Below, one piece after another: positions 6,760 through 55,230 of a stretch of 64,000 nucleotides of DNA. Under the pieces are notes generated by a model. It was given only the letters and a program-made list of their open reading frames with translations, did not search any database and had not been told where the DNA came from. This stretch comes from Frankiaceae bacterium (GTDB lineage Bacteria > Actinomycetota > Actinomycetes > JAFAQI01). The stretch lies in contig JAFAZI010000133.1 in the NCBI GenBank assembly GCA_019239875.1, positions 130 to 64,129 on the forward strand, read 5' to 3'. A program made the translations under genes and the position numbers. Each line of letters starts with the position of its first letter. The stretch's first letter is position 1.

Positions 6760-7524
6760 GTGACCGTCGGCGAAACACTTTCCCACGCCCGACGCAAGCG
6801 AGGGTTGTCGGTGGAGGACGTCGCCGCCGACACGCGGATCCGCGCGGCCGTGATCACGGCGATCGAATCTGATCGCTACGACCTCTGCGGCGGCACTGTC
6901 TATGCGCGCGGGCACATCCGAAGCATCGCGAAGGTCGTCGGCGTCAATCCGGAAGAGCTGATCGGCGAGTTCGACAGCGTCCATCAGGTCGAGCGGGTGG
7001 TGGCCGCCGTCGCGGCCACCCCCACCGATCACGACCTGGTCGCGCGAGCCGAACGCCGGCAGCCGAACTGGACAGTCGCCATGGCCGCGGCCCTCGTGGT
7101 GATCTGCGGGTTCGCGATCGTCGGGCTCGTCTCGCACAAGTCGAACTCGCCGGCCGCCGATGGTGCCGGCAGCCAGACGCCGCAGGGTCAGGCCGGCCAC
7201 CCGACACAGCAGCCCAGCTCACCGCCGCCATCCGCCGTCGCGCAGCTGCCGGCCGCAGGCGAGGCGACGATGCTCGTGCGAAGCGTCAGTGGGCGCACCT
7301 GGCTGTCCGTGACGACGAAGAACGGCCGCACGCTGTTCAGCGGCATCCTCGAAGTCGGGCAGCACAAGGCGTTCAGCGACCGCAAAGGGTTGGCTTACGT
7401 CATCGGGAACGCGCCGGTGGTCGACGTCGTCGTCAACGGCAACGACATCGGGGCGCCGCCATCGTCGAATGTCGTCGCGCGCGGCAGCGTCATCCCTGGA
7501 AAGGGCACCGTTCAGCAGGCGTGA
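6760..7524 (+). CDS. HTH (XRE-like) + DUF4115 domain protein, RodZ-like
   Basis: N-terminal HTH (GLSVEDVAADTRI…), one transmembrane segment, and a C-terminal DUF4115-like β domain. Confidence 0.7.
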   Translation: MTVGETLSHARRKRGLSVEDVAADTRIRAAVITAIESDRYDLCGGTVYARGHIRSIAKVVGVNPEELIGEFDSVHQVERVVAAVAATPTDHDLVARAERRQPNWTVAMAAALVVICGFAIVGLVSHKSNSPAADGAGSQTPQGQAGHPTQQPSSPPPSAVAQLPAAGEATMLVRSVSGRTWLSVTTKNGRTLFSGILEVGQHKAFSDRKGLAYVIGNAPVVDVVVNGNDIGAPPSSNVVARGSVIPGKGTVQQA

Positions 7525-19878: not shown

Positions 19879-20433
19879 CGCAGAGGTGCCGCTCGCGCGC
19901 GTGGGCTTTGTTACGGCGTGTGCTTGAACTAGTGATCTCAGGCCCGGACTATGGACCGGTGCGGCCGGTTCGATTGCCTTTGTTGATAGTGCTGGCCGTC
20001 ATCTGCGTCGTGATCACCGAGGCATGCGCCCCAAGCAACAACGAAAGCGACTGTCATATCCCGCAGCCCGCAGTCGGCGACTCGGGGAGCGCGACACTTC
20101 AGGCTCACCCGGCTCGCCACGTTTTGACTGCCAGATTTGGGGGACGCCACTGGCTCGCGCGCTCGCAGTTGAACGAGGTCCAGCCACTGGCCCACGCGAC
20201 AGTGATCCCGTCTCGGCCTCGCGGTCGGCGGCCTAAGACCAGTCGGCGCGGCATGCCTCCCCGACTTCGCATTGAGACCAGTCCGCCCATCGTCCTCAAT
20301 CTCGTGGAGATCGGGTGCGGATGATCGAGAAGTGCCTGATCTTGAGCGTGACATCCGGCGTTGTGAACTTTCCTAATCATGGCCTTTGCGGTACATCCGG
20401 GAGGTAGCCTTCGCGAAGGTGCGGGAGGCGCGG

Positions 20434-22422
20434 ATGTGGCGACGTGCGTTAACCGCGGCCGTATTGATCTTGACGGTGGTGCCTCTCTCGGCTGCGTCGG
20501 CGGGCGCCGATCACCGGTCGCGTTTCGAGGTCTCAGTTCGTCTGACGTCCCAGACGATCCTGATTGGGGACCATGCTGACCTAACCGGCAAGGTACGAGG
20601 CGGGATTCCTGGGACGAAGGTTCGCCTGCAGCGACGCGTCGCCGGCGCGTGGGTCGACAGGCGCCGTGCGCAGTTAGCGCGGCATTCCACCTTCGAGATC
20701 AGCCTCCCAACTGGCAAGGCTAGGTCGGTCCAGTATCGCGTCGTGAAACCCGCAGGGCGGGCGCGCCATCACATGGTGGAACGGTCTGGCCACAGTGCCC
20801 CAGTGAGACTGACGGTCTATCGCCGGCTTGATGTTAGTGATCCCGCGGACGGAAGTGCGTATAGCTACTACGACCACCGACTTAGCGCGCCGCACGTCAT
20901 GCACGGCAGCTGGCGGCTCGGCGGGGGCGCCCTCCCACACGGCCTCACGCTGTCGCAGGACGGTCAGATCACAGGAACTCCGACCGCGCACCAAACTGCG
21001 ACTTTCAGGTTGGAAGCGACTGGGACCGACGGAGCCGACCGGGTGAGTGAGCCGCTCCAAATGACGATTCGCGCCTACGTCAACGATGTAGGCAAGTACT
21101 GGTCTGCCGTGGCGGCACCTGACAGGTCCACCCGAAACGGCCAGTTTCAAGACCAGTTATTTGACGTCGACTGTCCCGCCACCGGCCAGTGCACTGCGGT
21201 CGGCACATACGCCGACTACTCACGAGATGGCCTGGGCGGCGTGCTCGTGGAGACTCTCGCTCTAGGCCAGTGGGTCGACCAAGAGGTGCCCCTGCCACCG
21301 GGCGTGACCGGACGGGCTGGGCTAAGTCAGATCGACTGCTCGGACTCGCTGAACTGTGTGGCTATCGGCAGCTTCGTCAACGACGGCAACGACTCCGACT
21401 ACTTCGCGCACGGTCTGCTTGGCGTCGAGACCGCTGGCGTCTGGACATTGAGCGTCGCGCCTACCCCGAGCGCCGCAGCTGCGGCAGGCCAGCAGTACAT
21501 GGACCTGACCTCCCTCGCTTGCAGCGGTCCAGCCGCGTGTGTTGCCTTCGGCGTCACGAGCGCCGGCGGAGCGCAGCACGTAAACGAAGCAACTGGTGTC
21601 GCCGAGACGCTGTCCGCGACGACGTGGGCCGCGACCACCGTCGATGCAGCGCACACATATGTCGGGCTGGCACATGCCACCTGCAGCGCCTCCGAATGTG
21701 TCCTCATCGGCCGTGGCTCGCCCCAGGATCGACTCATTGAGGGAAACGGGTCCGTCTGGTCGTCAACCGCGATCCCGTACGCCGCGCCAGCCTCGGCGGA
21801 AGCAAACGCCGTATCCGCACTGCGATGCTTCACCGCCGACTCGTGTACGTACATCGGCGCAGAAGCCGATATCGGGGCGGGCGGATGGCAGGGCATCGTC
21901 GGGTCGGTCGACAAGACCGTACCCAACTCCACATTCGGTCCAGCGGTACCTGACGTCGCGGGAAACTGGTTCTACAACGACTTATCCTGCACCGGCGCCA
22001 CCTGGTGCGCAGCTGGGGGTGTCTACGCGACGGCGACGGCCGCCCAACAGCCGGACGTGGCGACGTACGCCGCCGGCACCTGGACTGCGATTGGTCTCGT
22101 CGTCCCTCCCAGTCCCTATGACACGGAGGAGTCGCCGCCTGAGGGCTCTATCGAACACATCGACTGCCCTACGGTCGATCGATGCGCGGCCGCTGGCGCG
22201 GCAAACGCCGGAGCTCTGCTCATCACACGCGACGCTGATAGCTGGCATACGTTCTTGGCCCCGGCGCCCAGCGACGCGAAGCCTAGGGACAACGATCTTC
22301 AGTCGCTGAGTTGCGCGTCGACTACCTTCTGTGTGTCGGTGGGCGAGTACTACACGGCCCAATTTCCGCAATTACCCCACGGCTTAATCGAGACATACGA
22401 CGGACCACCGGCAAGCAGCTAA
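20434..22422 (+). CDS. secreted protein with Ig-like N-terminal domains and eight Cys-x4-5-Cys tandem repeats
   Basis: Start at MWRRALTAAVLILTV… (signal peptide) with GGGAGG 6 nt upstream. Contains a putative Ig-type segment (LPHGLTLSQDGQITGTPTA…). It then carries eight roughly 50-55-aa repeats, each beginning C-x4-5-C-x-[AV]-x-G and containing a conserved Trp. Confidence 0.7.
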   Translation: MWRRALTAAVLILTVVPLSAASAGADHRSRFEVSVRLTSQTILIGDHADLTGKVRGGIPGTKVRLQRRVAGAWVDRRRAQLARHSTFEISLPTGKARSVQYRVVKPAGRARHHMVERSGHSAPVRLTVYRRLDVSDPADGSAYSYYDHRLSAPHVMHGSWRLGGGALPHGLTLSQDGQITGTPTAHQTATFRLEATGTDGADRVSEPLQMTIRAYVNDVGKYWSAVAAPDRSTRNGQFQDQLFDVDCPATGQCTAVGTYADYSRDGLGGVLVETLALGQWVDQEVPLPPGVTGRAGLSQIDCSDSLNCVAIGSFVNDGNDSDYFAHGLLGVETAGVWTLSVAPTPSAAAAAGQQYMDLTSLACSGPAACVAFGVTSAGGAQHVNEATGVAETLSATTWAATTVDAAHTYVGLAHATCSASECVLIGRGSPQDRLIEGNGSVWSSTAIPYAAPASAEANAVSALRCFTADSCTYIGAEADIGAGGWQGIVGSVDKTVPNSTFGPAVPDVAGNWFYNDLSCTGATWCAAGGVYATATAAQQPDVATYAAGTWTAIGLVVPPSPYDTEESPPEGSIEHIDCPTVDRCAAAGAANAGALLITRDADSWHTFLAPAPSDAKPRDNDLQSLSCASTTFCVSVGEYYTAQFPQLPHGLIETYDGPPASS

Positions 22423-22706
22423 CCATCCCATCGCTAGCTGTGTACCTCCGTGCTGCTCTTCGCGAACGCGCGTGACCTGCGCGTGGTGCGCGGGACGTCG
22501 TAGTCGAGCCGCCCATCGTCGGTGGGCCACGTGATCGGGATCCTGCGCGCGGGGCCGACGAGCTCCCCAGATAATCTGCGGCGACATCGCAACAGGACAA
22601 TCTCCACCGGCGAAGGAACAGGGCGAGCAAGGACGCGCGCCGCGAGACGTGCATAGGTGCCGTTTGCGAGCACATATCGCTCATCTGCTGCGCCATCATG
22701 TGACCC

Positions 22707-23003
22707 ATGTCCGCTGCCGAGCAGGACCCCACCATCGGTGCCTCGCGCTCCCTCATCGACGGTGACTGGGAGTGGCCTGTCCACGGTCTACGTCACCCAC
22801 CAGCGGACCGAACATCCGGCTGGTACGTCTGGACCGGCGATCTCTCCCACGCCGATGACTTTTTCCAGCCGTGGCACACCAGCCATCTGGTGGAGCGGGT
22901 CCCGCAGTTGGCGTCCTTGCTTGATCTCCCTCCGGGGTCGAGATTCTTGATCGCGCCTGACCATCTGGACACCTGGAAAGACCCGTCTCTCCTCGACGTG
23001 TAG
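22707..23003 (+). CDS. hypothetical Trp-rich small protein
   Basis: 98-aa ORF (…WEWPVHGLRHPP…WYVWTGD…FQPWH…). An alternative antisense ORF at 22434..22784 overlaps it. Confidence 0.35.
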   Translation: MSAAEQDPTIGASRSLIDGDWEWPVHGLRHPPADRTSGWYVWTGDLSHADDFFQPWHTSHLVERVPQLASLLDLPPGSRFLIAPDHLDTWKDPSLLDV

Positions 23004-23139
23004 GCGCCTAGAAGTGCCGATCGCGGCGTCTGGCCCTCCGGCCTGCAGGATCGGGCCGGGCGGTCGTTCGCGTAGGCATAACCCGCGTATGGCGCTCTTT
23101 CGTCGGCGGGCCGAATCGCCGACGCCGCCACGGGCTCCG

Positions 23140-23850
23140 ATGCGGAGTCTGGAGGACCTCGTCCACGTCAAGCCTCCTGCCTGGCCGTGGCTCGCTGAAC
23201 TCATCGAGAGGTCTCGGGTCCCAGTTCGTGTTATCCCTGCCGATCCGGAGGCAGCGAGCACGTGCCTGTATCGGTTGCAGGTGAGCGTTGCCTCGGCTCT
23301 GGGTGCAGTCGCGTTCAACACGGGTGGGCTCATCGTGGATCACGGATGGCTGCGGATCCTCGGCTGTGGCGGTGAAGGGCTGACTGACCTGGCGATGGCA
23401 AATGCGCTCGGCGATCGAGCGAAAGCGGCAGGCCCCCCGTCACATCTCGTTGTCGCCTATGACGTCGTCGGCGGGCGATTCGCCGTGAACGGCGGTGGGT
23501 TGCCAGGCCCGTCCGGACAGGTTCACTACTGGGGACCCGACACCTTGAGCTGGCACTCTCTCGGTTTCGGACACTCTGCGTTCATCGAATGGACTCTCGC
23601 CGGCAGCACGGTCGATTTCTATTCTTCGCTGCGCTGGCCGGGTTGGGAAGAAGACGCTGAAAGCGTCGCCGGTGATCAAGGCATCCTGCTCTACCCGCCG
23701 CCGTTTTCTGCGCAGGGCCAAGACACGACCAACGTCGCCCGGAAGGTTGTGTCCTGGGACGAACTCGTCGGCATGTATGACGACTTCAGTCGCCAAATGG
23801 GTGAGCTGCCGCCCGGCACCGAGTTCCAGATCGTTGTGACTGACGACTGA
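23140..23850 (+). CDS. DUF2625 domain protein
   Basis: Start chosen at MRSLEDLVHVKPPAWPWL…; resembles the DUF2625 family (recalled from memory, not searched). Confidence 0.55.
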   Translation: MRSLEDLVHVKPPAWPWLAELIERSRVPVRVIPADPEAASTCLYRLQVSVASALGAVAFNTGGLIVDHGWLRILGCGGEGLTDLAMANALGDRAKAAGPPSHLVVAYDVVGGRFAVNGGGLPGPSGQVHYWGPDTLSWHSLGFGHSAFIEWTLAGSTVDFYSSLRWPGWEEDAESVAGDQGILLYPPPFSAQGQDTTNVARKVVSWDELVGMYDDFSRQMGELPPGTEFQIVVTDD

Positions 23851-23898
23851 CGACTAGAAGTGCCGTTCTGCGGTGGAGGTCGAGGTTCAGGGACGATG

Positions 23899-24132
23899 TC
23901 AGACTGTCAGTAGAAGTACGCCGAGGATCACGCTGACCGCGCTCGGCGCGACCAATAGCAAAGACAGACGTCGGAGCTGATCGCCCCACCCGTGGATCTT
24001 CGATCTGTACGCCTCGCTGGGCTGTCGGTGGGTGAAGCTGATGTTCCAGCGCCGGTAAATCAGGGAGCCTTCATACGTCAGCGCAATCGGGCACGTCCCG
24101 AGCACAATCAGAAGAATCCCGGCGGTCGTCAC
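23899..24132 (-). CDS. small membrane protein (two predicted TM helices)
   Basis: Hydrophobic N- and C-terminal segments. Codon usage looks atypical for this genome. Confidence 0.4.
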   Translation of the reverse strand: MTTAGILLIVLGTCPIALTYEGSLIYRRWNISFTHRQPSEAYRSKIHGWGDQLRRLSLLLVAPSAVSVILGVLLLTV

Positions 24133-24257
24133 ACGGCTAGTTTGCCCGCGCCCTAGGTTGCCATTCGCCGGAGAAGTGCCCGCTCGCGTCCGACGCTGAG
24201 CGATCAGGCGCTATTGGACGCTCGAACCATCGACAGGGCCTGGCAGGTCGTAAGACC

Positions 24258-24656
24258 ATGGCGTCCGTGCATCGACCCGCGCTCATCCTGGTCGGGGTGG
24301 TGCTCGCCGCCACTGGTTGCAGCAGTTCCGACGCAGGCGGAGAATCCGCGTCGCGTACCTCGTTCGCACCAGCAGCGGGGACTGTGCCAGCCAACGGTCC
24401 TCCTGACGTAGTCGGGATGCACCTCGGCAAGGCGCTGCGCACACTGCGAGTTGCAGGCTTCGCTTGGCGTGTGAGGGCCGCCCTCCAGCCGCGGGACGCC
24501 AATCTGGGGCGAGTCGTCGTCCAATGCCGCCCCAGCGGAGGTCCGAACGGCAAGCACCGCATCTCGGTCATCTATGCATCCACCGGAAACACCGTTCTGT
24601 CAATGCGCTCGGCGACTCCGGCCGATCTTGAGTGTGCGTCACGCTGGGCGCACTAG
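24258..24656 (+). CDS. lipoprotein with PASTA-like domain
   Basis: Signal peptide plus lipobox (LAATGCSS). PASTA-like segment PPDVVGMHLGKALRTLRVAGF…GRVVVQ. Confidence 0.65.
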   Translation: MASVHRPALILVGVVLAATGCSSSDAGGESASRTSFAPAAGTVPANGPPDVVGMHLGKALRTLRVAGFAWRVRAALQPRDANLGRVVVQCRPSGGPNGKHRISVIYASTGNTVLSMRSATPADLECASRWAH

Positions 24657-25098
24657 AGGGCGATGCATAGATGCCGTTCCCGAGCGGGTGGACCGGCGTT
24701 ATCGTGCGGTCGTGTCACTCGATGAGGATGGACGTAACGCCCTCCATCACGCTGCGGTACGCGGTGAGGTCGACGTGCTGGCCAGCCTTCCAAAGCGCGG
24801 AGACCATGACCTCGACCTCGCCGATCGTCAGGGCTTCACGCCGCTTCACTTTGCTGCGCAGCAGGGCGACCTGGAAGCCGTGCGACTGCTGCTGGTCGCC
24901 GGTGCATCTGTCGACCCGCAGGACAGCCGCGGGAACACGCCGTTGTGGCGCGCCGTCTTCGGCAACAACGCTGTCGCGGAGATAGTTCAGCTGCTCCTGG
25001 CAGCGGGCGCCGACCCTGACATCACGAACAACAGTGGACGGTCACCACGAGATATGGCCGCGACCTTTAACAAGGCCGAGATAGTCAGTCAACTCTGA
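24574..25098 (+). CDS. ankyrin-repeat protein
   Basis: At least three ANK repeats (NALHHAAVRGEVDVL…, GFTPLHFAAQQGDLEAVRLLLVAGA…, GNTPLWRAV…). The start is uncertain (possibly GTG 24712), because the track ORF overlaps the preceding gene. Confidence 0.65.
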   Translation: MHPPETPFCQCARRLRPILSVRHAGRTRGRCIDAVPERVDRRYRAVVSLDEDGRNALHHAAVRGEVDVLASLPKRGDHDLDLADRQGFTPLHFAAQQGDLEAVRLLLVAGASVDPQDSRGNTPLWRAVFGNNAVAEIVQLLLAAGADPDITNNSGRSPRDMAATFNKAEIVSQL

Positions 25099-25171
25099 TC
25101 GCGTACACGACCGAGCCTCAGCCACGGTCCGCAGACTATAGGTGCCGTTCACGGAACCTGATCGGCAGCCG

Positions 25172-25618
25172 CTAAGTCCCAACTCGGTTCCAGGGAGGCG
25201 GAGCCACCCACCAAGCAAGGTGTCCGTCTGTGCGGCACCGTCGGGCGATGCGATCCACATGGACGGAGCTGAACCCCCCACCGAGGGCACGGTGCTCGGC
25301 GTGGCGCCAAGCAATATGACCGCGGCGGTTGTAGATCCGAAGTGGCCTGACCCGGTAGTAGTAGCCGTGCGGCCACAGAGCCGCATGCAGTCCGTTTCCG
25401 TCGTGTAACCAGACACAACGGGCCTTCTTGCCAACCCGAATCGTTGCATCTCGCATCAACATCGCGGGAAGCGTTCGTGTCCGGCCGTAGGTGGGGAGCG
25501 CGTGGGCGCCCGACGGAATCGGACGGGCTCGGCTCGATGCCCCGACCGGATCCGAAGCAATGAGAACACACATTCCAAGAAGCACGCTCAACCCGAGCCA
25601 AGCGACCCGCCGCGCCAT
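25172..25618 (-). CDS. hypothetical secreted protein
   Basis: Start at MARRVAWLGLSVLLGMCVLIAS… (signal peptide). Trp/His/Arg-rich, with no recognised domain. Confidence 0.5.
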   Translation of the reverse strand: MARRVAWLGLSVLLGMCVLIASDPVGASSRARPIPSGAHALPTYGRTRTLPAMLMRDATIRVGKKARCVWLHDGNGLHAALWPHGYYYRVRPLRIYNRRGHIAWRHAEHRALGGGFSSVHVDRIARRCRTDGHLAWWVAPPPWNRVGT

Positions 25619-26099
25619 TCGACAGCCGCGCACACGCGAACGATATGCGGCGGGATCCGTGAACGTGGAAGTGATGCTCTTTCCCGCGGGCATCGCGTCC
25701 CGCCGCAGGCGGCAGACTATGAGTTCCGTTAGCCGCTCACGACGACGTCGGCACCGCGCCAAAGAAGTGCCCGACTCGGCACCCGAGCCTTCCGTGAGCC
25801 GCTAGTGAACCCGGAAGCGCCGAGGGATAGATGCCAGCCACAAGGGTCAGCCCGCCAATTCCACTACCGACTGCCAGGCGTGGCCAGTTGGGAACTTCGG
25901 CCCCTCGCAGCTTGCAAGCGGGATTCCCGGAGGCTCCGACGGACATGAGCCTTCAGCGACCGTTCCTGCCACGGCGCCATTGATCAGCCCGAATATCGCC
26001 GACAGCAACACGATCCCCAGGAGCCGCCGGATCACGTCGTGACCGTAACGCTGATCGTCATCGACGCGTTCGGACGCGCGGCGGCGTGTCGGCTTTACT

Positions 26100-26115
26100 T
26101 CGAACACCTGTTCTA
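26100..26115 (+). promoter_or_regulatory. LexA (SOS) box upstream of recA
   Basis: TCGAACACCTGTTCTA, versus the actinobacterial consensus TCGAAC-N4-GTTCGA. It lies 107 bp upstream of the recA ATG. Confidence 0.7.
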
Positions 26116-26221
26116 TAGGTTGTGGAGAACGACATGGCGTCCACAGATCCGGATCGCGCCTCGAAACTGTCCGACCCGGCTCCTAACGTCAGCGGCACCA
26201 GACACCACTCGGAGGGCTCGC

Positions 26222-28610
<2,389 letters not shown>

Positions 28611-51666: not shown

Positions 51667-51758
51667 CATCACGTTGGCCGGCCGAGGTGTGCAGGTTTAG
51701 TGACGACAGGTCGTCGGTAGGTCTGCACGCTCTGGGGCCGGCCAAGGATTGGTATGGG

Positions 51759-52502
51759 ATGCAGGTCACGATCGTCACCGGTGGCGGGCGGGGGATCGGT
51801 GCTGCCTGCGTACGGCGCCTCGCCGCGGCCGGGCATGCGGTCGCGGTCAACTATCGATCGGATGAAGCCGCCGCGGCCGCTGTGGTGCAAGCGGTTCTCG
51901 ACGCTGGCGGCCGGGCGGTTGCGATCCAGGCCGACGTGACCGACGGCGCCGACCTCGAGCAGTTGTTTCGCACCACCCATGACGAGCTCGGTCCGGTCAC
52001 GGGACTGATCAACAACGCGGGCGCCACTGCTCACATCGCCGATCTCGCCGACACGCCGGTCGAGACCGTGCGCTCGGTCATCGACCTCAACCTCACCGCC
52101 GCCGTGCTGTGCGCCCGGCAAGCCGCGATCGTGATGTCCACGCGCCGCGGCGGCGGGGGAGGCTCGATCGTCAACATCTCCTCCGGCGCCGCGACGCTGG
52201 GCTCACCGCACGAGTACGTTCACTACGCCGCCGCCAAGGCCGGGATCGACACCCTCACCGTGGGCCTGGCCAAGGAGCTCGCGGGCGACGGGATCCGCGT
52301 CAACGCCGTTGCCCCCGGCCTGATCAACACGACGATTCACGCCGATGCCGGTGACGCCGGGAGGCTCGACCGCGCGAAAGATCGCGTGCCGATGGCCCGA
52401 GCCGGTGAGGTCGATGAGGTGGCGCCTGCGGTCGCGTGGTTGCTCAGCGCCGAGGCGACGTACATCACGGGCGCCGTCATCCGGGTCGCGGGTGGCCTGT
52501 GA
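51759..52502 (+). CDS. SDR-family oxidoreductase
   Basis: TGGGRGIGAA Rossmann motif and the YxxxK catalytic region; start at MQVTIVTGG. Confidence 0.8.
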   Translation: MQVTIVTGGGRGIGAACVRRLAAAGHAVAVNYRSDEAAAAAVVQAVLDAGGRAVAIQADVTDGADLEQLFRTTHDELGPVTGLINNAGATAHIADLADTPVETVRSVIDLNLTAAVLCARQAAIVMSTRRGGGGGSIVNISSGAATLGSPHEYVHYAAAKAGIDTLTVGLAKELAGDGIRVNAVAPGLINTTIHADAGDAGRLDRAKDRVPMARAGEVDEVAPAVAWLLSAEATYITGAVIRVAGGL

Positions 52503-52837
52503 CCCCCGCCGACCGGCTCGCGGCGGATCGCGAGACGACGCTCGAGCAGATCGACGACCTGAGCGCCGAGCTCGCCGACATCGTCGCCTCCACCGACCTC
52601 GTCGCGACCGACGACGAGCACGATCCGGAGGGCGCCACGATCGCGTTCGAGCGCGCCCGGATCGATGCGTTGCTCGACGCCGCGAGAGATCACCTCGCCG
52701 CGATCGGGCACGCCGAGGCGCGGCTGGCGGCCGGGGAGTACGGCGTGTGTGAGCGCTGCGGCCAGCCGATCAGTGAGGCGCGGCTGGAAGCGCGCCCGAC
52801 GGCAGCCACGTGCATCGACTGCGCCAACGCCGGCTAG
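52499..52837 (+). CDS. DksA/TraR-family C4 zinc-finger protein (short form)
   Basis: C-terminal CERCGQPISEARLEARPTAATCIDC. GTG start overlapping the SDR stop (GTGA). Confidence 0.6.
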   Translation: MTPADRLAADRETTLEQIDDLSAELADIVASTDLVATDDEHDPEGATIAFERARIDALLDAARDHLAAIGHAEARLAAGEYGVCERCGQPISEARLEARPTAATCIDCANAG

Positions 52838-53775
52838 GACGGGGCGCTTGCGCGTGGCTTGGGCTGGTCGAGATCGGCGCGGCCGAGCAGCAGCAGAAGC
52901 GTGGCAAGCAGGCTCACCACGGCCACGATCGTGAGGTTGGTGCTGACGCGGTAGGCATCGGAGAGGATGCCCGGTGGCGTCGGCGCGGCCGCGTCGTTGT
53001 TCGCGAGGAACCGCAGCACCCGCTCGGCGTTCAGCGCCCCGGCGGCCAAGCAGTACAGCCACACGACACTCAGCACCGCGAATGCTGGCACGTGGCCGAG
53101 CCGATGGCCGGTGCCGACCGGCCGATACCTGGCGATCACCGCGGCCATGATCGCGACCGCGGCGAAGCTCAGAAAGGCGGCACCGATCGCGTCGCTCGGG
53201 CGGTGCCAGCCTGCGGTCTGCACCGCCGCGGCCGTGAACCAGGCGAAGGACCCGGCGACCACCGCCGAGATGCCGCGCCACGACGGTGGCGACACGACGA
53301 CGAGCGCCAAGGCGCACGAGATGGCCGTCGCCGTGTGCCCGCTCGGATAGGTGTTGTAGGCCTGGACCAGGGCGTTGTCGACGAGTGCCGGTCGGCCGAG
53401 CACCACGCGCCGGAGCAGGTCGGTGAACAGCACCGAGAACGCGGCCGCAACCGCGACGCTGATCCCGAGGCGGGGCCGCCGTCGTACCCATCCGAAGCCG
53501 ACGATGAGGACCAGTACCAGGAGGAAGGAGTCGGCAGTGATCCGTTGCAGCTGGTCGGTGTCGGAGATCCGGGTCGCCGGGAGCTGCTGGCGGGCGCCGA
53601 GCAGCGCGGCGTTGTCGAAGCGCTGCCCGATGGCCGTGTAGACGAACAGGACGTAGATCGCCGCACACGCGAGGGCCGCAACCGCGGCTGCGACCAGCAA
53701 GCGGGTCGCGAGCCGCCGGTCGGGCACAGCGTCGACCGGTGCCGAGGTCGGTACCGCCGTCGTCACCACGCTCAC
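52834..53775 (-). CDS. PAP2-superfamily phosphatase (membrane)
   Basis: PSGH (YPSGHTATA) and SR/HRPSD motifs in a polytopic protein. GTG start with GGAGG 5 nt upstream; the track ORF is over-extended. Confidence 0.65.
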   Translation of the reverse strand: MSVVTTAVPTSAPVDAVPDRRLATRLLVAAAVAALACAAIYVLFVYTAIGQRFDNAALLGARQQLPATRISDTDQLQRITADSFLLVLVLIVGFGWVRRRPRLGISVAVAAAFSVLFTDLLRRVVLGRPALVDNALVQAYNTYPSGHTATAISCALALVVVSPPSWRGISAVVAGSFAWFTAAAVQTAGWHRPSDAIGAAFLSFAAVAIMAAVIARYRPVGTGHRLGHVPAFAVLSVVWLYCLAAGALNAERVLRFLANNDAAAPTPPGILSDAYRVSTNLTIVAVVSLLATLLLLLGRADLDQPKPRASAPS

Positions 53776-53886
53776 GCCTCCATGAAAGCCCGAAAACCTG
53801 AACGATTCGCGATTTCGCTGCGGTTGCGCCTGACCCGTGGCAGGTTGACACCGTCGAAGCGTGTCGCTGACCTGGGGGTTTGCCCG

Positions 53887-54903
53887 ATGTACGACGCTGG
53901 ACGCCGCGCCCGAACCTGGGGAGTTCTCCTGTTGGTGATCGGCGGCGCAGCGGCCGCGGTCGGACCGGTGCAGCGGGTCTCGGCAACTCCGGCTGGCCAT
54001 GGCGGCTGGCACTTCAGCAAGCCGTACCGGATTCCGCACATGCGTGACGCAGTGAACGGGATCGCGTGCCCGACGGCCAAGCTGTGCCTCGCGCCATCGG
54101 CGAACAAGATGTTCTGGACCACGAAGGCGACCGGCGGCAAAGGCAAGTGGAAGAACGCAGCGCTCGAGGACTCGCAGGGCGGGAGCGTGATCCTCACCGA
54201 CGTCACCTGCGCGTCGAAGAACCTGTGCGTTGCCGTCGACAACCTCGGCAACGGGTTCGTCGCAACGAAGCCGGCGGGCGGCAAGAACGCCTGGCATCCC
54301 GTCTACATCTCGAGCATCGAGATCGAGTCGGTCGGCTGCTCCGCCAGTGGCGACTGCGCGGCCCTGGACTACTACGGCAACGTCTTCTCGACAACAACGC
54401 CATCGACCGGATGGACCATCGGGAACAAGAAGGTCGGTACCGGTGCGGGCTCAGATGGCGGCGTCGGGTGCGCGCACGGCCTGTGCGCCGTCACGTCGGG
54501 TACCAACAAGATCGCGACCACCACGAAGCCCGGCAGCGCGACCTGGAAGGTCACGAAGGTCAAGGGGTCGAGTCAGTGGTCTGACGTCGCCTGCCCCTCG
54601 GCGCATCGCTGCGTCGCCGTCGGCAGCCCTTCGTTCCACGGCAAGGTGGCCGTCTCGAAGGGCGCGGGTGGCTGGAAGCACGCGAGCTTGGGCCAGGGTG
54701 GTGGCGGCGGCGTCGACTGTGCGAGCGCATCCTCCTGCTTCATCATCTCCGACTACTTCTCGTCGCACCCCAAGGCGAGCAAGCACGCGTGGAAGCCCGT
54801 CGCCATGCCCTCGCTCGGCAGCCAGACCGGCGTGTCTTGCCCCACGCCGAGGCGCTGCTTCATCGGTACGTCGACCAACCAGTTCACGGTCGGGAACCGC
54901 TAG
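53887..54903 (+). CDS. secreted protein of seven Cys-x4-5-Cys tandem repeats (paralogue of 20434..22422)
   Basis: Start MYDAGRRARTWGVLLLVIGGAAAAVG (signal). Seven roughly 43-aa modules (C-x4-5-C-[VALF]-[AV]…W…), e.g. CASKNLCVAVDNLGNGFVATKPAGGKNAWHPV. Confidence 0.65.
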   Translation: MYDAGRRARTWGVLLLVIGGAAAAVGPVQRVSATPAGHGGWHFSKPYRIPHMRDAVNGIACPTAKLCLAPSANKMFWTTKATGGKGKWKNAALEDSQGGSVILTDVTCASKNLCVAVDNLGNGFVATKPAGGKNAWHPVYISSIEIESVGCSASGDCAALDYYGNVFSTTTPSTGWTIGNKKVGTGAGSDGGVGCAHGLCAVTSGTNKIATTTKPGSATWKVTKVKGSSQWSDVACPSAHRCVAVGSPSFHGKVAVSKGAGGWKHASLGQGGGGGVDCASASSCFIISDYFSSHPKASKHAWKPVAMPSLGSQTGVSCPTPRRCFIGTSTNQFTVGNR

Positions 54904-55230
54904 CTACCAGCGCGGGGGCATCGCTCGATCGCTGATCGACTCGCCCGGTGCCGGTGGTCCCGGATCGCTCGGCAGGTCGAGCACCGGCGGCCTGTCACGG
55001 TCGGGCACGCGCTTCCACACGTCGCGCAGGATCATCGGGGCGACGAAGACCGTGTAGAGGAACCCGGCGAACAACCATCCGATCTGATAGCTCATGGCGA
55101 GGCCCGGAATGTTGACGCCGACCAGCCACCAAACCGGTAGCAACGCGACGACGGTGGCGAGAACTCGGCCGGCTGGTCCGAAGGTGACAGCCGACCGTTT
55201 CCAGCGGGACATCTGCGGACGGCCGTTCAC
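54904..55230 (-). CDS. small membrane protein (hypothetical)
   Basis: Two hydrophobic helices (VLATVVALLPVWWLVGV…; IGWLFAGFLYTVFVAPMIL). Start uncertain. Confidence 0.35.
   Translation of the reverse strand: MNGRPQMSRWKRSAVTFGPAGRVLATVVALLPVWWLVGVNIPGLAMSYQIGWLFAGFLYTVFVAPMILRDVWKRVPDRDRPPVLDLPSDPGPPAPGESISDRAMPPRW

Follow-up and report, generated by a model that had tools for sequence, protein, structure and literature searches.

Repeat architecture and gene start

The DNA analysed here (the window, a stretch of 64,000 nucleotides from contig JAFAZI010000133.1 of a Frankiaceae bacterium) carries a gene for a protein of seven cysteine-pair modules, predicted to be an exported β-propeller and referred to below as the target. 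The gene stands head-to-head with that of a PAP2-family membrane phosphatase and meets the gene of a small membrane protein at its 3′ end, and a distant paralogue is encoded elsewhere in the window (table 1). An earlier note, made from the sequence alone, had described the target as a secreted protein with seven repeats, each built of a Cys pair and a conserved Trp, and lacking the N-terminal Ig-like region of that paralogue.

Table 1. Features of the propeller locus and the paralogue (window positions).
Feature	Position	Strand	Basis
Distant paralogue: predicted signal peptide, He_PIG Ig-like domain, eight-bladed propeller	20434..22422	+	He_PIG E 6.6e-8; hhalign; shuffles; AlphaFold2 model
DksA/TraR zinc-finger protein	52436..52837	+	PF01258 E 3.5e-13
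PAP2-family membrane phosphatase, divergent	52834..53775	-	PF01569 E 4e-7; start GTG 53773-53775, GGAGG Shine-Dalgarno 53777-53781
Divergent intergenic region, 111 bp, conserved blocks CCTGAAC, GATTTCGCTGCG, GGCAGGTTGAC, GCTGACCTGGGGGTTTGCCCG	53776..53886	.	alignment of loci
Coding sequence, predicted exported seven-bladed propeller, 338 aa + stop	53887..54903	+	GC at third codon positions 0.88; orthologues; AlphaFold2 model
Putative Sec-type signal peptide, residues 1-33	53887..53985	+	sequence inspection; equivalent orthologue sites; low predicted local distance difference test (pLDDT)
Mature N-terminus TPAGHGGWHFSKPYR, C-D-loop motif and predicted strand D closing blade 7 (velcro closure)	53986..54030	+	family C-D-loop pattern; AlphaFold2 model
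Blade 1, residues 55-101, CPTAKLC	54049..54189	+	blade model, independent E-value (i-E) 7e-14; AlphaFold2 model
Blade 2, residues 102-144, CASKNLC	54190..54318	+	blade model i-E 8e-17; AlphaFold2 model
Blade 3, residues 145-188, CSASGDC	54319..54450	+	blade model i-E 7e-9; AlphaFold2 model
Blade 4, residues 189-229, CAHGLC	54451..54573	+	blade model i-E 5e-10; AlphaFold2 model
Blade 5, residues 230-271, CPSAHRC	54574..54699	+	blade model i-E 5e-12; AlphaFold2 model
Blade 6, residues 272-311, CASASSC	54700..54819	+	blade model i-E 2e-10; AlphaFold2 model
Blade 7, strands A-C only, residues 312-338, CPTPRRC	54820..54900	+	blade model i-E 2e-6; AlphaFold2 model
Small conserved membrane protein, ~108 aa, convergent, abutting the propeller stop without spacer	54904..55230	-	homologues in L004, L005

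The repeat description proved accurate. Translation of 53887..54900 gives exactly seven C-x4-5-C pairs (residues 61/67, 108/114, 151/157, 195/200, 236/242, 278/284 and 318/324), successive pairs standing 40-47 residues apart, and a short last module of 27 aa. Six modules carry a loop of the [ST]-x-x-[PA]-x-G-G-x-x-W type, Gly-rich, often Lys-rich and with the Trp at its end, and a seventh Trp-ending copy, SATPAGHGGW (residues 32-41), lies in the mature N-terminus. A hidden Markov model (HMM) of the blade, built from 160-odd modules of other proteins after removal of all window-derived sequences, independently recovered seven blades in the target (i-E 2e-6 to 8e-17; full-sequence score 171.9 bits), and the periodicity is therefore far beyond chance. 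Mutual identity between these blades is only 19-41% and almost no repeats are shared at the DNA level, indicating that the repeat is old and not the product of a recent amplification. The absence of the Ig-like region was confirmed as well, since no He_PIG domain was found by Pfam search in the target, unlike in the protein at 20386..22422, the public gene call of which starts at 20434.

The earlier note had also proposed that the real start of the gene, at 53887, is hidden inside an over-long open reading frame, and this was upheld by codon-position composition and by the orthologues. Indeed, the three codon positions have GC contents of 0.54/0.59/0.88 within 53887..54900 but of 0.87/0.53/0.70 in the same frame upstream, where they mirror those of the PAP2 gene encoded on the complementary strand (0.71/0.53/0.89). 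The 697-codon frame 52810..54903 is accordingly an antisense artefact of the PAP2 gene. Moreover, the start codons of orthologues line up with 53887 at the DNA level, and the alignment of the orthologues P0002-P0006 with the target begins in the signal peptide of each and continues across a conserved GWHF/W-x-K-x-Y motif. Starts further upstream (53782, 53824 and 53845) were rejected, as they are not conserved in the related loci L003 or L004 and overlap the PAP2 start region.

From this start, a Sec-type signal peptide can be read by inspection (n-region RRAR, h-region GVLLLVIGGAAAAVGPV, c-region Q-R-V-S-A, cleavage before T34), and in the orthologues A-x-A sites occur at the corresponding place, ahead of the conserved GWHF motif by 5-9 residues. 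Signal-peptide-like N-termini are thus seen by inspection in the target and in its orthologues alike, and we infer that the 53887..54903 protein is probably Sec-exported and extracytoplasmic. Other routes were rejected: the sequence RRARTW does not fit the Tat pattern S/T-R-R-x-F-L-K, the signal peptide contains no Cys and no lipobox as expected for a lipoprotein, and the target has no LPXTG motif for sortase anchoring. Public annotation begins the identical sequence (P0001, 287 aa) with the ATG at 54040. This call, 51 codons downstream of 53887, leaves out the signal peptide as well as the ring-closing strand described below, and such a late start would mislead predictions of localization and structure.

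Predicted fold and place among known propellers

AlphaFold2 was run on the target together with ten relatives. The model obtained for the target (mean pLDDT 84.4; predicted template modelling score, pTM, 0.82) is all β, its strands falling into seven groups of four, with residues 1-38 disordered (pLDDT below 50). In each module, the first Cys closes strand A and the second opens strand B, with a turn of 2-5 residues between them, and the Gly...Trp loop connects strands C and D. The last module lacks a strand D of its own, which the mature N-terminus is predicted to supply with residues 41-48; short strands are modelled there at residues 42-43 and 47-48 with a pLDDT around 90, and the blade HMM gives a weak partial match to this N-terminus at positions 24-39. 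The mature protein (304 residues) is basic, with an isoelectric point of about 9.4, its Lys and Arg residues being concentrated in the C-D loops and D strands, a charge pattern that is not kept in all relatives.

Searched with Foldseek against the PDB, the model gave 1,660 matches at E<=1e-3, essentially all of them propellers. Ycf48 ranks first (E 6e-13; template modelling (TM) score 0.62-0.65), followed by hundreds of seven-bladed propellers. WD40 propellers reach TM-scores equal to or higher than those of Ycf48 (up to 0.68), and other propeller classes score similarly to the Asp-box members, of which Ycf48 comes top for the target and sortilin, sialidases and GH74 enzymes for the paralogue. 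The prediction of a seven-bladed β-propeller is consequently solid, whereas assignment to the Asp-box class is only suggestive, because the WD40 propellers match the TM-scores of Ycf48.

By definition, moreover, the target was not retained as an Asp-box (BNR) protein: the motif S-x-D-x-G-x-T-W, in strict or loose form, is absent from both the target and the 20434..22422 paralogue, and no BNR or PSII_BNR model was passed. The corresponding loop of the family, S-T-D-P-T-G-G-x-x-x-W, is three residues longer than the Asp-box. The models PF14870, PF02012 and PF15902 give no match at E<=1 in the target, with isolated sub-threshold matches in distant members only; weak PSII_BNR matches occur in two of these (P0029, 7.6e-6; one A2 member, 1.4e-4). 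Ycf48/HCF136 itself (PSII_BNR, PF14870; PDB 2xbg and 5ojr), a photosystem II assembly factor, is likewise a single-domain, seven-bladed propeller of ~300 residues located outside the cytoplasm. Nevertheless, it is only 10-13% identical in sequence to the target and has no Cys-pair repeat, whereas the target has Cys pairs but neither an Asp-box nor a PF14870 match, and its organism is non-photosynthetic.

Three other propeller classes were considered and rejected. The target gives no match to Tachylectin (PF14517), has seven blades versus five of 47 aa, and lacks GW in its D-A' loops, its GW dipeptides (residues 40, 175 and 262) all being in C-D loops. WD40 membership is contradicted by the lack of any WD40 Pfam match, the likeness being structural only. 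Finally, for the NHL propellers of the PknD type, the sequence match is non-significant and no Pfam NHL match was obtained. The target is thus best described as a Cys-stapled variant in the broad propeller superfamily, between the Asp-box and the tachylectin/PQQ neighbourhoods.

Within that neighbourhood, Pereira & Lupas 2021 (PMC8023676) reported uncharacterized clusters of secreted, propeller-only actinobacterial proteins linked to the tachylectins ('VCBS actinolectins' and a second group), with a conserved Gly and Trp in a loop C-D that forms a short helical turn; cysteines are not mentioned. Compared by description only, both clusters resemble the target in being secreted, propeller-only and actinobacterial and in their conserved C-D Gly and Trp, and the blade family may overlap with them.

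In canonical propeller topology, the A-B hairpins and the C-D loops lie together, and for this reason the central channel would have the seven Cys pairs arranged around one of its openings, on the same face as the C-D loops. Within each pair, the two cysteines most likely form an intrablade disulfide. Four observations argue for this: the protein appears to be exported; all close homologues keep an even 14 Cys; exported actinobacterial proteins are folded oxidatively by the MdbA/DsbA-VKOR machinery (PMC9974433, PMC12421883); and a precedent exists in CyRPA of Plasmodium falciparum, a non-enzymatic propeller of the sialidase/Asp-box type in which five blades in a row each contain one buried disulfide and the other blade, made up of the N- and C-termini, is the closure blade (PMC5349852). 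The likeness to CyRPA is one of mechanism only, as CyRPA is eukaryotic and six-bladed, has no sequence relationship to the target, and does not arrange its disulfides as repeated C-x4-5-C pairs. One disulfide per blade would represent a simple design principle for stabilizing propellers outside the cell.

An uncurated blade family and a distant paralogue

No Pfam or NCBIfam model matches the target; a match to a known domain would, according to the earlier note, have spoken against its family inference. Likewise, none matched consistently among 26 relatives and 56 canonical members: the relatives match only generic propeller families (Tachylectin, PQQ_2, PSII_BNR, EMC1), below threshold or in summed scores, and, spuriously, Cys-rich models. 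About a third of the canonical members carry precomputed, summed PF14517 matches. Zinc-finger and Lustrin Cys-rich domains were rejected, their Pfam scores being far below threshold and reflecting Cys periodicity only. By sequence, no PDB chain (tachylectin-2 included) was found with three queries, namely the orthologue profile, the profile of the 56 canonical members and P0034; the best match of the orthologue profile was PknD of Mycobacterium tuberculosis (1rwi; E 0.11, 14.7 bits), which is non-significant.

The size of the family became apparent only from an exhaustive profile search of 1.84 billion cluster representatives (clusters at 50% identity). A word-indexed search had returned only 28 relatives, and scanning a collection of genome contigs with the target protein returned none, whereas the profile search yielded 16,913 representatives at E<=1e-3, 8,420 at E<=1e-10 and 2,047 at E<=1e-30. 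The canonical blade reads vSCPSxSLCVAVDxxGNVxTSTdPTGGaxaW, with a median period of 45 residues. Fourteen blades (two sets of seven) are present in 98 of the 148 top hits, smaller groups having 20-27, and this sharp peak suggests that the family is built from seven-blade units. At least 106 of the same 148 hits have an N-terminal hydrophobic segment, and the accessory domains found in the family are all of extracytoplasmic types (InlB B-repeat, PASTA and Big_3_5; He_PIG, fn3, IPT/TIG and OmpA in the subfamily of the paralogue). The organisms named are Actinomycetota, Mycobacteriales, Acidimicrobiales and Solirubrobacteraceae metagenome-assembled genomes (MAGs). Where members have a name, it is 'hypothetical protein' or derives from an accessory or generic domain; for ten NCBI/ENA members looked up, the former was the only name returned, and an exact look-up of P0001 gave no record.

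The target shows the signature of this family in full, with seven Cys pairs at A-B hairpins (C-x4-6-C in the family) and seven Trp-ending loops, one of them N-terminal. From these profile matches, it appears to be the smallest architecture, a single set of seven blades, of a very large and mainly actinobacterial family. A different use of the blade is seen in P0182, a member from outside the window in which an N-terminal Ser/Thr kinase is followed by one transmembrane helix (residues 334-352) and seven Cys-pair blades. This layout is that of a receptor kinase with an ectodomain drawn from the Cys-pair blade family, and it is the same as in PknD, an actinobacterial receptor kinase with a propeller ectodomain. 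PknD also has in common with the blade family a strand B-C motif of the 'AVD-x-x-GNV-x-VT' type, but its propeller consists of six NHL blades without Cys pairs, and the target has no kinase.

The gene itself is that of an ordinary hypothetical secreted protein; the main benefit lies in recognizing a large uncurated family and in correcting the gene start. Having thousands of members in soil Actinomycetota, the family possesses neither a Pfam or NCBIfam model nor a solved structure, and the target offers a compact, well-predicted representative of it. A curated model would annotate many proteins, receptor-kinase ectodomains included.

The second protein of the window belongs to the same family in a looser sense than the earlier note had supposed. 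Its repeat region comprises eight Cys-pair modules of 42-61 residues, modelled as eight four-stranded blades (pLDDT 77.6, pTM 0.83). BLASTP between the two proteins is marginal (E 3e-4, 22% identity); however, when all six frames of the window were translated and scanned with the blade HMM, the paralogue was the only other match (E 9.8e-8, the next being 0.11). It scores 24.8 bits with the blade HMM and 37.1 bits with the family HMM, against maxima of 9.1 and 7.8 in 300 Cys-preserving shuffles (z 4.8 and 9.6), and hhalign of the two family profiles gives a probability of 99% (E 5.9e-18, 280 columns, 17% identity). The relationship thus extends beyond Cys spacing, as had been claimed. The idea of a locally diversifying pair was not supported, given the 17% identity and the differences in blade period (~45 versus ~55 aa) and in blade number (seven versus eight). 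Relatives of the paralogue form a distinct subfamily with a period of ~55 residues and the consensus LxSVSCxSxGxCxAVGxYxDxxGxxxGLLxTxSxGxWxAxxAPLP. By these comparisons, the paralogy is real but ancient, the two proteins falling into different subfamilies.

The paralogue sits in a stretch of lower GC content (window positions 20000..28000; 0.61-0.65 versus about 0.68-0.72 elsewhere). An identical copy on another contig (L089, 3962..6626) is followed by Imm33-like, DUF2625 and ankyrin genes, a succession that resembles immunity-gene arrays.

A conserved locus and the possible functions of the propeller

The genes flanking the propeller were correctly identified in the earlier note, PAP2 (PF01569) and the small membrane protein lying on the opposite strand and DksA/TraR (PF01258) nearby. 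The proposal of a separate accessory locus was not sustained, as PAP2, DksA/TraR, the small membrane protein, the F420 reductase and AlkZ are syntenic in relatives and only the propeller is patchy. The closest genomes are uncultured Mycobacteriales MAGs (NrdJ 86-91% identical, PAP2 up to 64%), and a recurrent backbone is found in related Mycobacteriales: an AlkZ-like glycosylase, an F420H2 quinone reductase, the small membrane protein and PAP2, then NrdJ. The propeller stands head-to-head with PAP2, on the opposite strand, in the window and in loci L003, L004 and L008 only (L005 being cut at this point). Being present in four loci only, within a conserved backbone, it is therefore a patchy, lineage-specific insertion. 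In five other loci (L009, L010, L011, L013 and L015), the small transmembrane gene immediately precedes PAP2, in the same orientation and sometimes with an overlap, and the propeller insertion appears to have split this unit; in L012 and L018, the reductase abuts PAP2. A mobile-element insertion was rejected, as neither notable flanking direct or inverted repeats nor a GC anomaly were found. In L012, the space that separates the F420 reductase from PAP2, exactly the position of the propeller in the window, is taken up by a tandem repeat of 31 nt (6775..6952; 5.7 copies, 93% matches).

The intergenic region between the propeller and PAP2 genes is conserved at the DNA level more strongly than either flanking protein. 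Its blocks are found in the window, L003, L004 and partly L008, and are absent from relatives without the propeller, and it contains an AACCTG/CAGGTT inverted pair. It is probably promoter/operator DNA for both genes. No sigma-70 consensus promoter was found. A riboswitch or small RNA was rejected (best Rfam E 1.5, far below gathering; folding z -0.85 to +1.6 on both strands). The window PAP2 is 64-70% identical to those of L003, L004 and L008, and its start region aligns with theirs.

We favour, with moderate confidence, the view that the target is a Sec-exported, disulfide-stapled, non-enzymatic binding or scaffold propeller with seven blades. According to this scenario, the Sec pathway would export a single-domain propeller with one four-stranded sheet per blade; disulfides between the two cysteines flanking the tight turn of the innermost strands A and B would place seven staples near the central axis, on one face, together with the Gly-rich, Trp-ending C-D loops; the mature N-terminus would close the ring by giving strand D to blade 7; and the propeller would bind or scaffold, non-enzymatically, a ligand of the cell envelope or of the environment outside the cytoplasmic membrane. 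In this lineage, its gene was inserted head-to-head with that of the PAP2 lipid phosphatase, a conserved and probably regulatory region being common to both. Of all this, the repeats, the start codon, the fold, the synteny, the paralogy and the size of the family are demonstrated here; export, the disulfides, the binding role and any link to PAP2 are inferences.

Several points weigh against this interpretation. The only argument for the non-enzymatic reading is that no constellation of acidic or nucleophilic residues is conserved. According to the DSSP register of the model, the two cysteines of C-x5-C blades are placed diagonally and not directly opposite each other. As seen above with the WD40 propellers, structural likeness discriminates the superfamilies poorly. 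In addition, family members have neither a known ligand nor a known partner or phenotype, and the gene contexts of distant relatives are heterogeneous, that of one relative being unrelated. The four alternatives that follow are, nevertheless, each less likely.

In the first, the target would serve the adjacent PAP2 as a dedicated partner outside the cytoplasm, docking on the outer face of this membrane enzyme as Ycf48 does on D1 and aiding or regulating the recycling of the polyprenyl-diphosphate carrier lipid. We consider this unlikely, even though the head-to-head pair is kept in all four loci, with or without the small transmembrane gene, the intergenic region is unusually conserved and Ycf48 is the top structural match. 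Distant relatives could be read in the same direction, as they are encoded near BacA (L001), near a PASTA kinase and a LysM-SLT protein (L002), and near GtrA, GT2, mannosyltransferase and AftA genes (L006), all related to the envelope or to polyprenyl-linked glycan metabolism; these contexts give a weak hint of a cell-envelope link. However, the PAP2 orthologues of ten related genomes (47-61% identity) have no propeller within 7 kb, those of L012 and L018 being as close as that of L008, so that PAP2 works without the propeller, and the pairing could be synteny inherited in one small clade. A wider version, which we would regard as a long shot, would see in the Cys-pair blade the hallmark of a major module for ligand recognition outside the cytoplasm (at least 17,000 clusters), the single-propeller form of which was recruited as a co-regulated envelope partner of PAP2 acting on polyprenyl-linked cell-wall precursors. 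If the module reading were true, the same blades would be used as a stand-alone secreted propeller, in tandem (2x7) and as the sensor ectodomain of a Ser/Thr kinase.

Improbable as well is an Asp-box-type propeller enzyme (sialidase, GH74 or lyase-like) acting on a glycan. The paralogue model does match sortilin, sialidases, GH74 xyloglucanases and a PL24 lyase, and GH74 consists of two seven-bladed propellers, as in the dominant 14-blade members of the family. Yet the TM-scores of the paralogue to enzymes are low (0.25-0.44), no glycoside hydrolase model was matched, and the Asp-box is missing in any form. Among the ten relatives, the invariant residues are structural only (Cys, Trp, Gly, Pro and two Asp after strand B). 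These two Asp, D118 and D161, lie in the C-V-A-V-D turn, a structural position of the repeat, and E94 is the only other nearly invariant acidic residue.

The earlier note had further suggested that the two proteins of the window belong to a variable surface-protein family diversifying locally, a reading that would cover, for instance, antigenic or phage-receptor variation, and had raised the possibility of variation in repeat number among relatives. The propeller is indeed patchy among close relatives and, at 40-58% full-length identity versus 60-91% for its neighbours (PAP2 64-70%, AlkZ 60-72%, hydrolase 81%, NrdJ 91%), it evolves faster than they do. In the alignment of relatives, variability is greatest in the outer strand D and in the loops, and conservation is highest in strands A and B; the paralogue lies in its lower-GC stretch. 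On the other hand, repeat number does not vary, all full-length close relatives having seven blades; few indels interrupt the full-length alignment of orthologues, and the subfamily keeps several loops (such as ALEPSxQPxVxG, HPxAKxSAW and GSQTxVSCPT). The low inter-blade identity and near absence of DNA repeats leave no trace of recent amplification and no substrate for recombination, the two paralogues are only 17% identical, and no mobile-element boundaries were found. Local diversification accordingly seems doubtful. The window protein lacks five residues of the ALEPSxQPxVxG loop (54160..54190; residues 92-102, between blades 1 and 2), most close relatives being full length there.

Lastly, the binding of a metal (Zn, Fe or Cu) by the Cys pairs, making the target a metal-binding or redox propeller, is very improbable: the fourteen Cys do form regular C-x4-5-C pairs, and 7 of 26 members give weak sub-threshold Pfam matches to Cys-rich zinc-finger models, but these matches are far below the cut-offs (11.8 versus 26 bits), two Cys alone make no tetrahedral site, and Sec export would lead into an oxidizing compartment, where pairs flanking the turn of an intrablade β-hairpin have the usual geometry of cross-strand disulfides.

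As listed, the DksA/TraR-like open reading frame shares 67 nt with the 3′ end of an SDR gene (51687..52502) and 4 nt with the PAP2 gene at its stop. Its real start is probably later than 52436, because the L004 homologue is 121 aa long.

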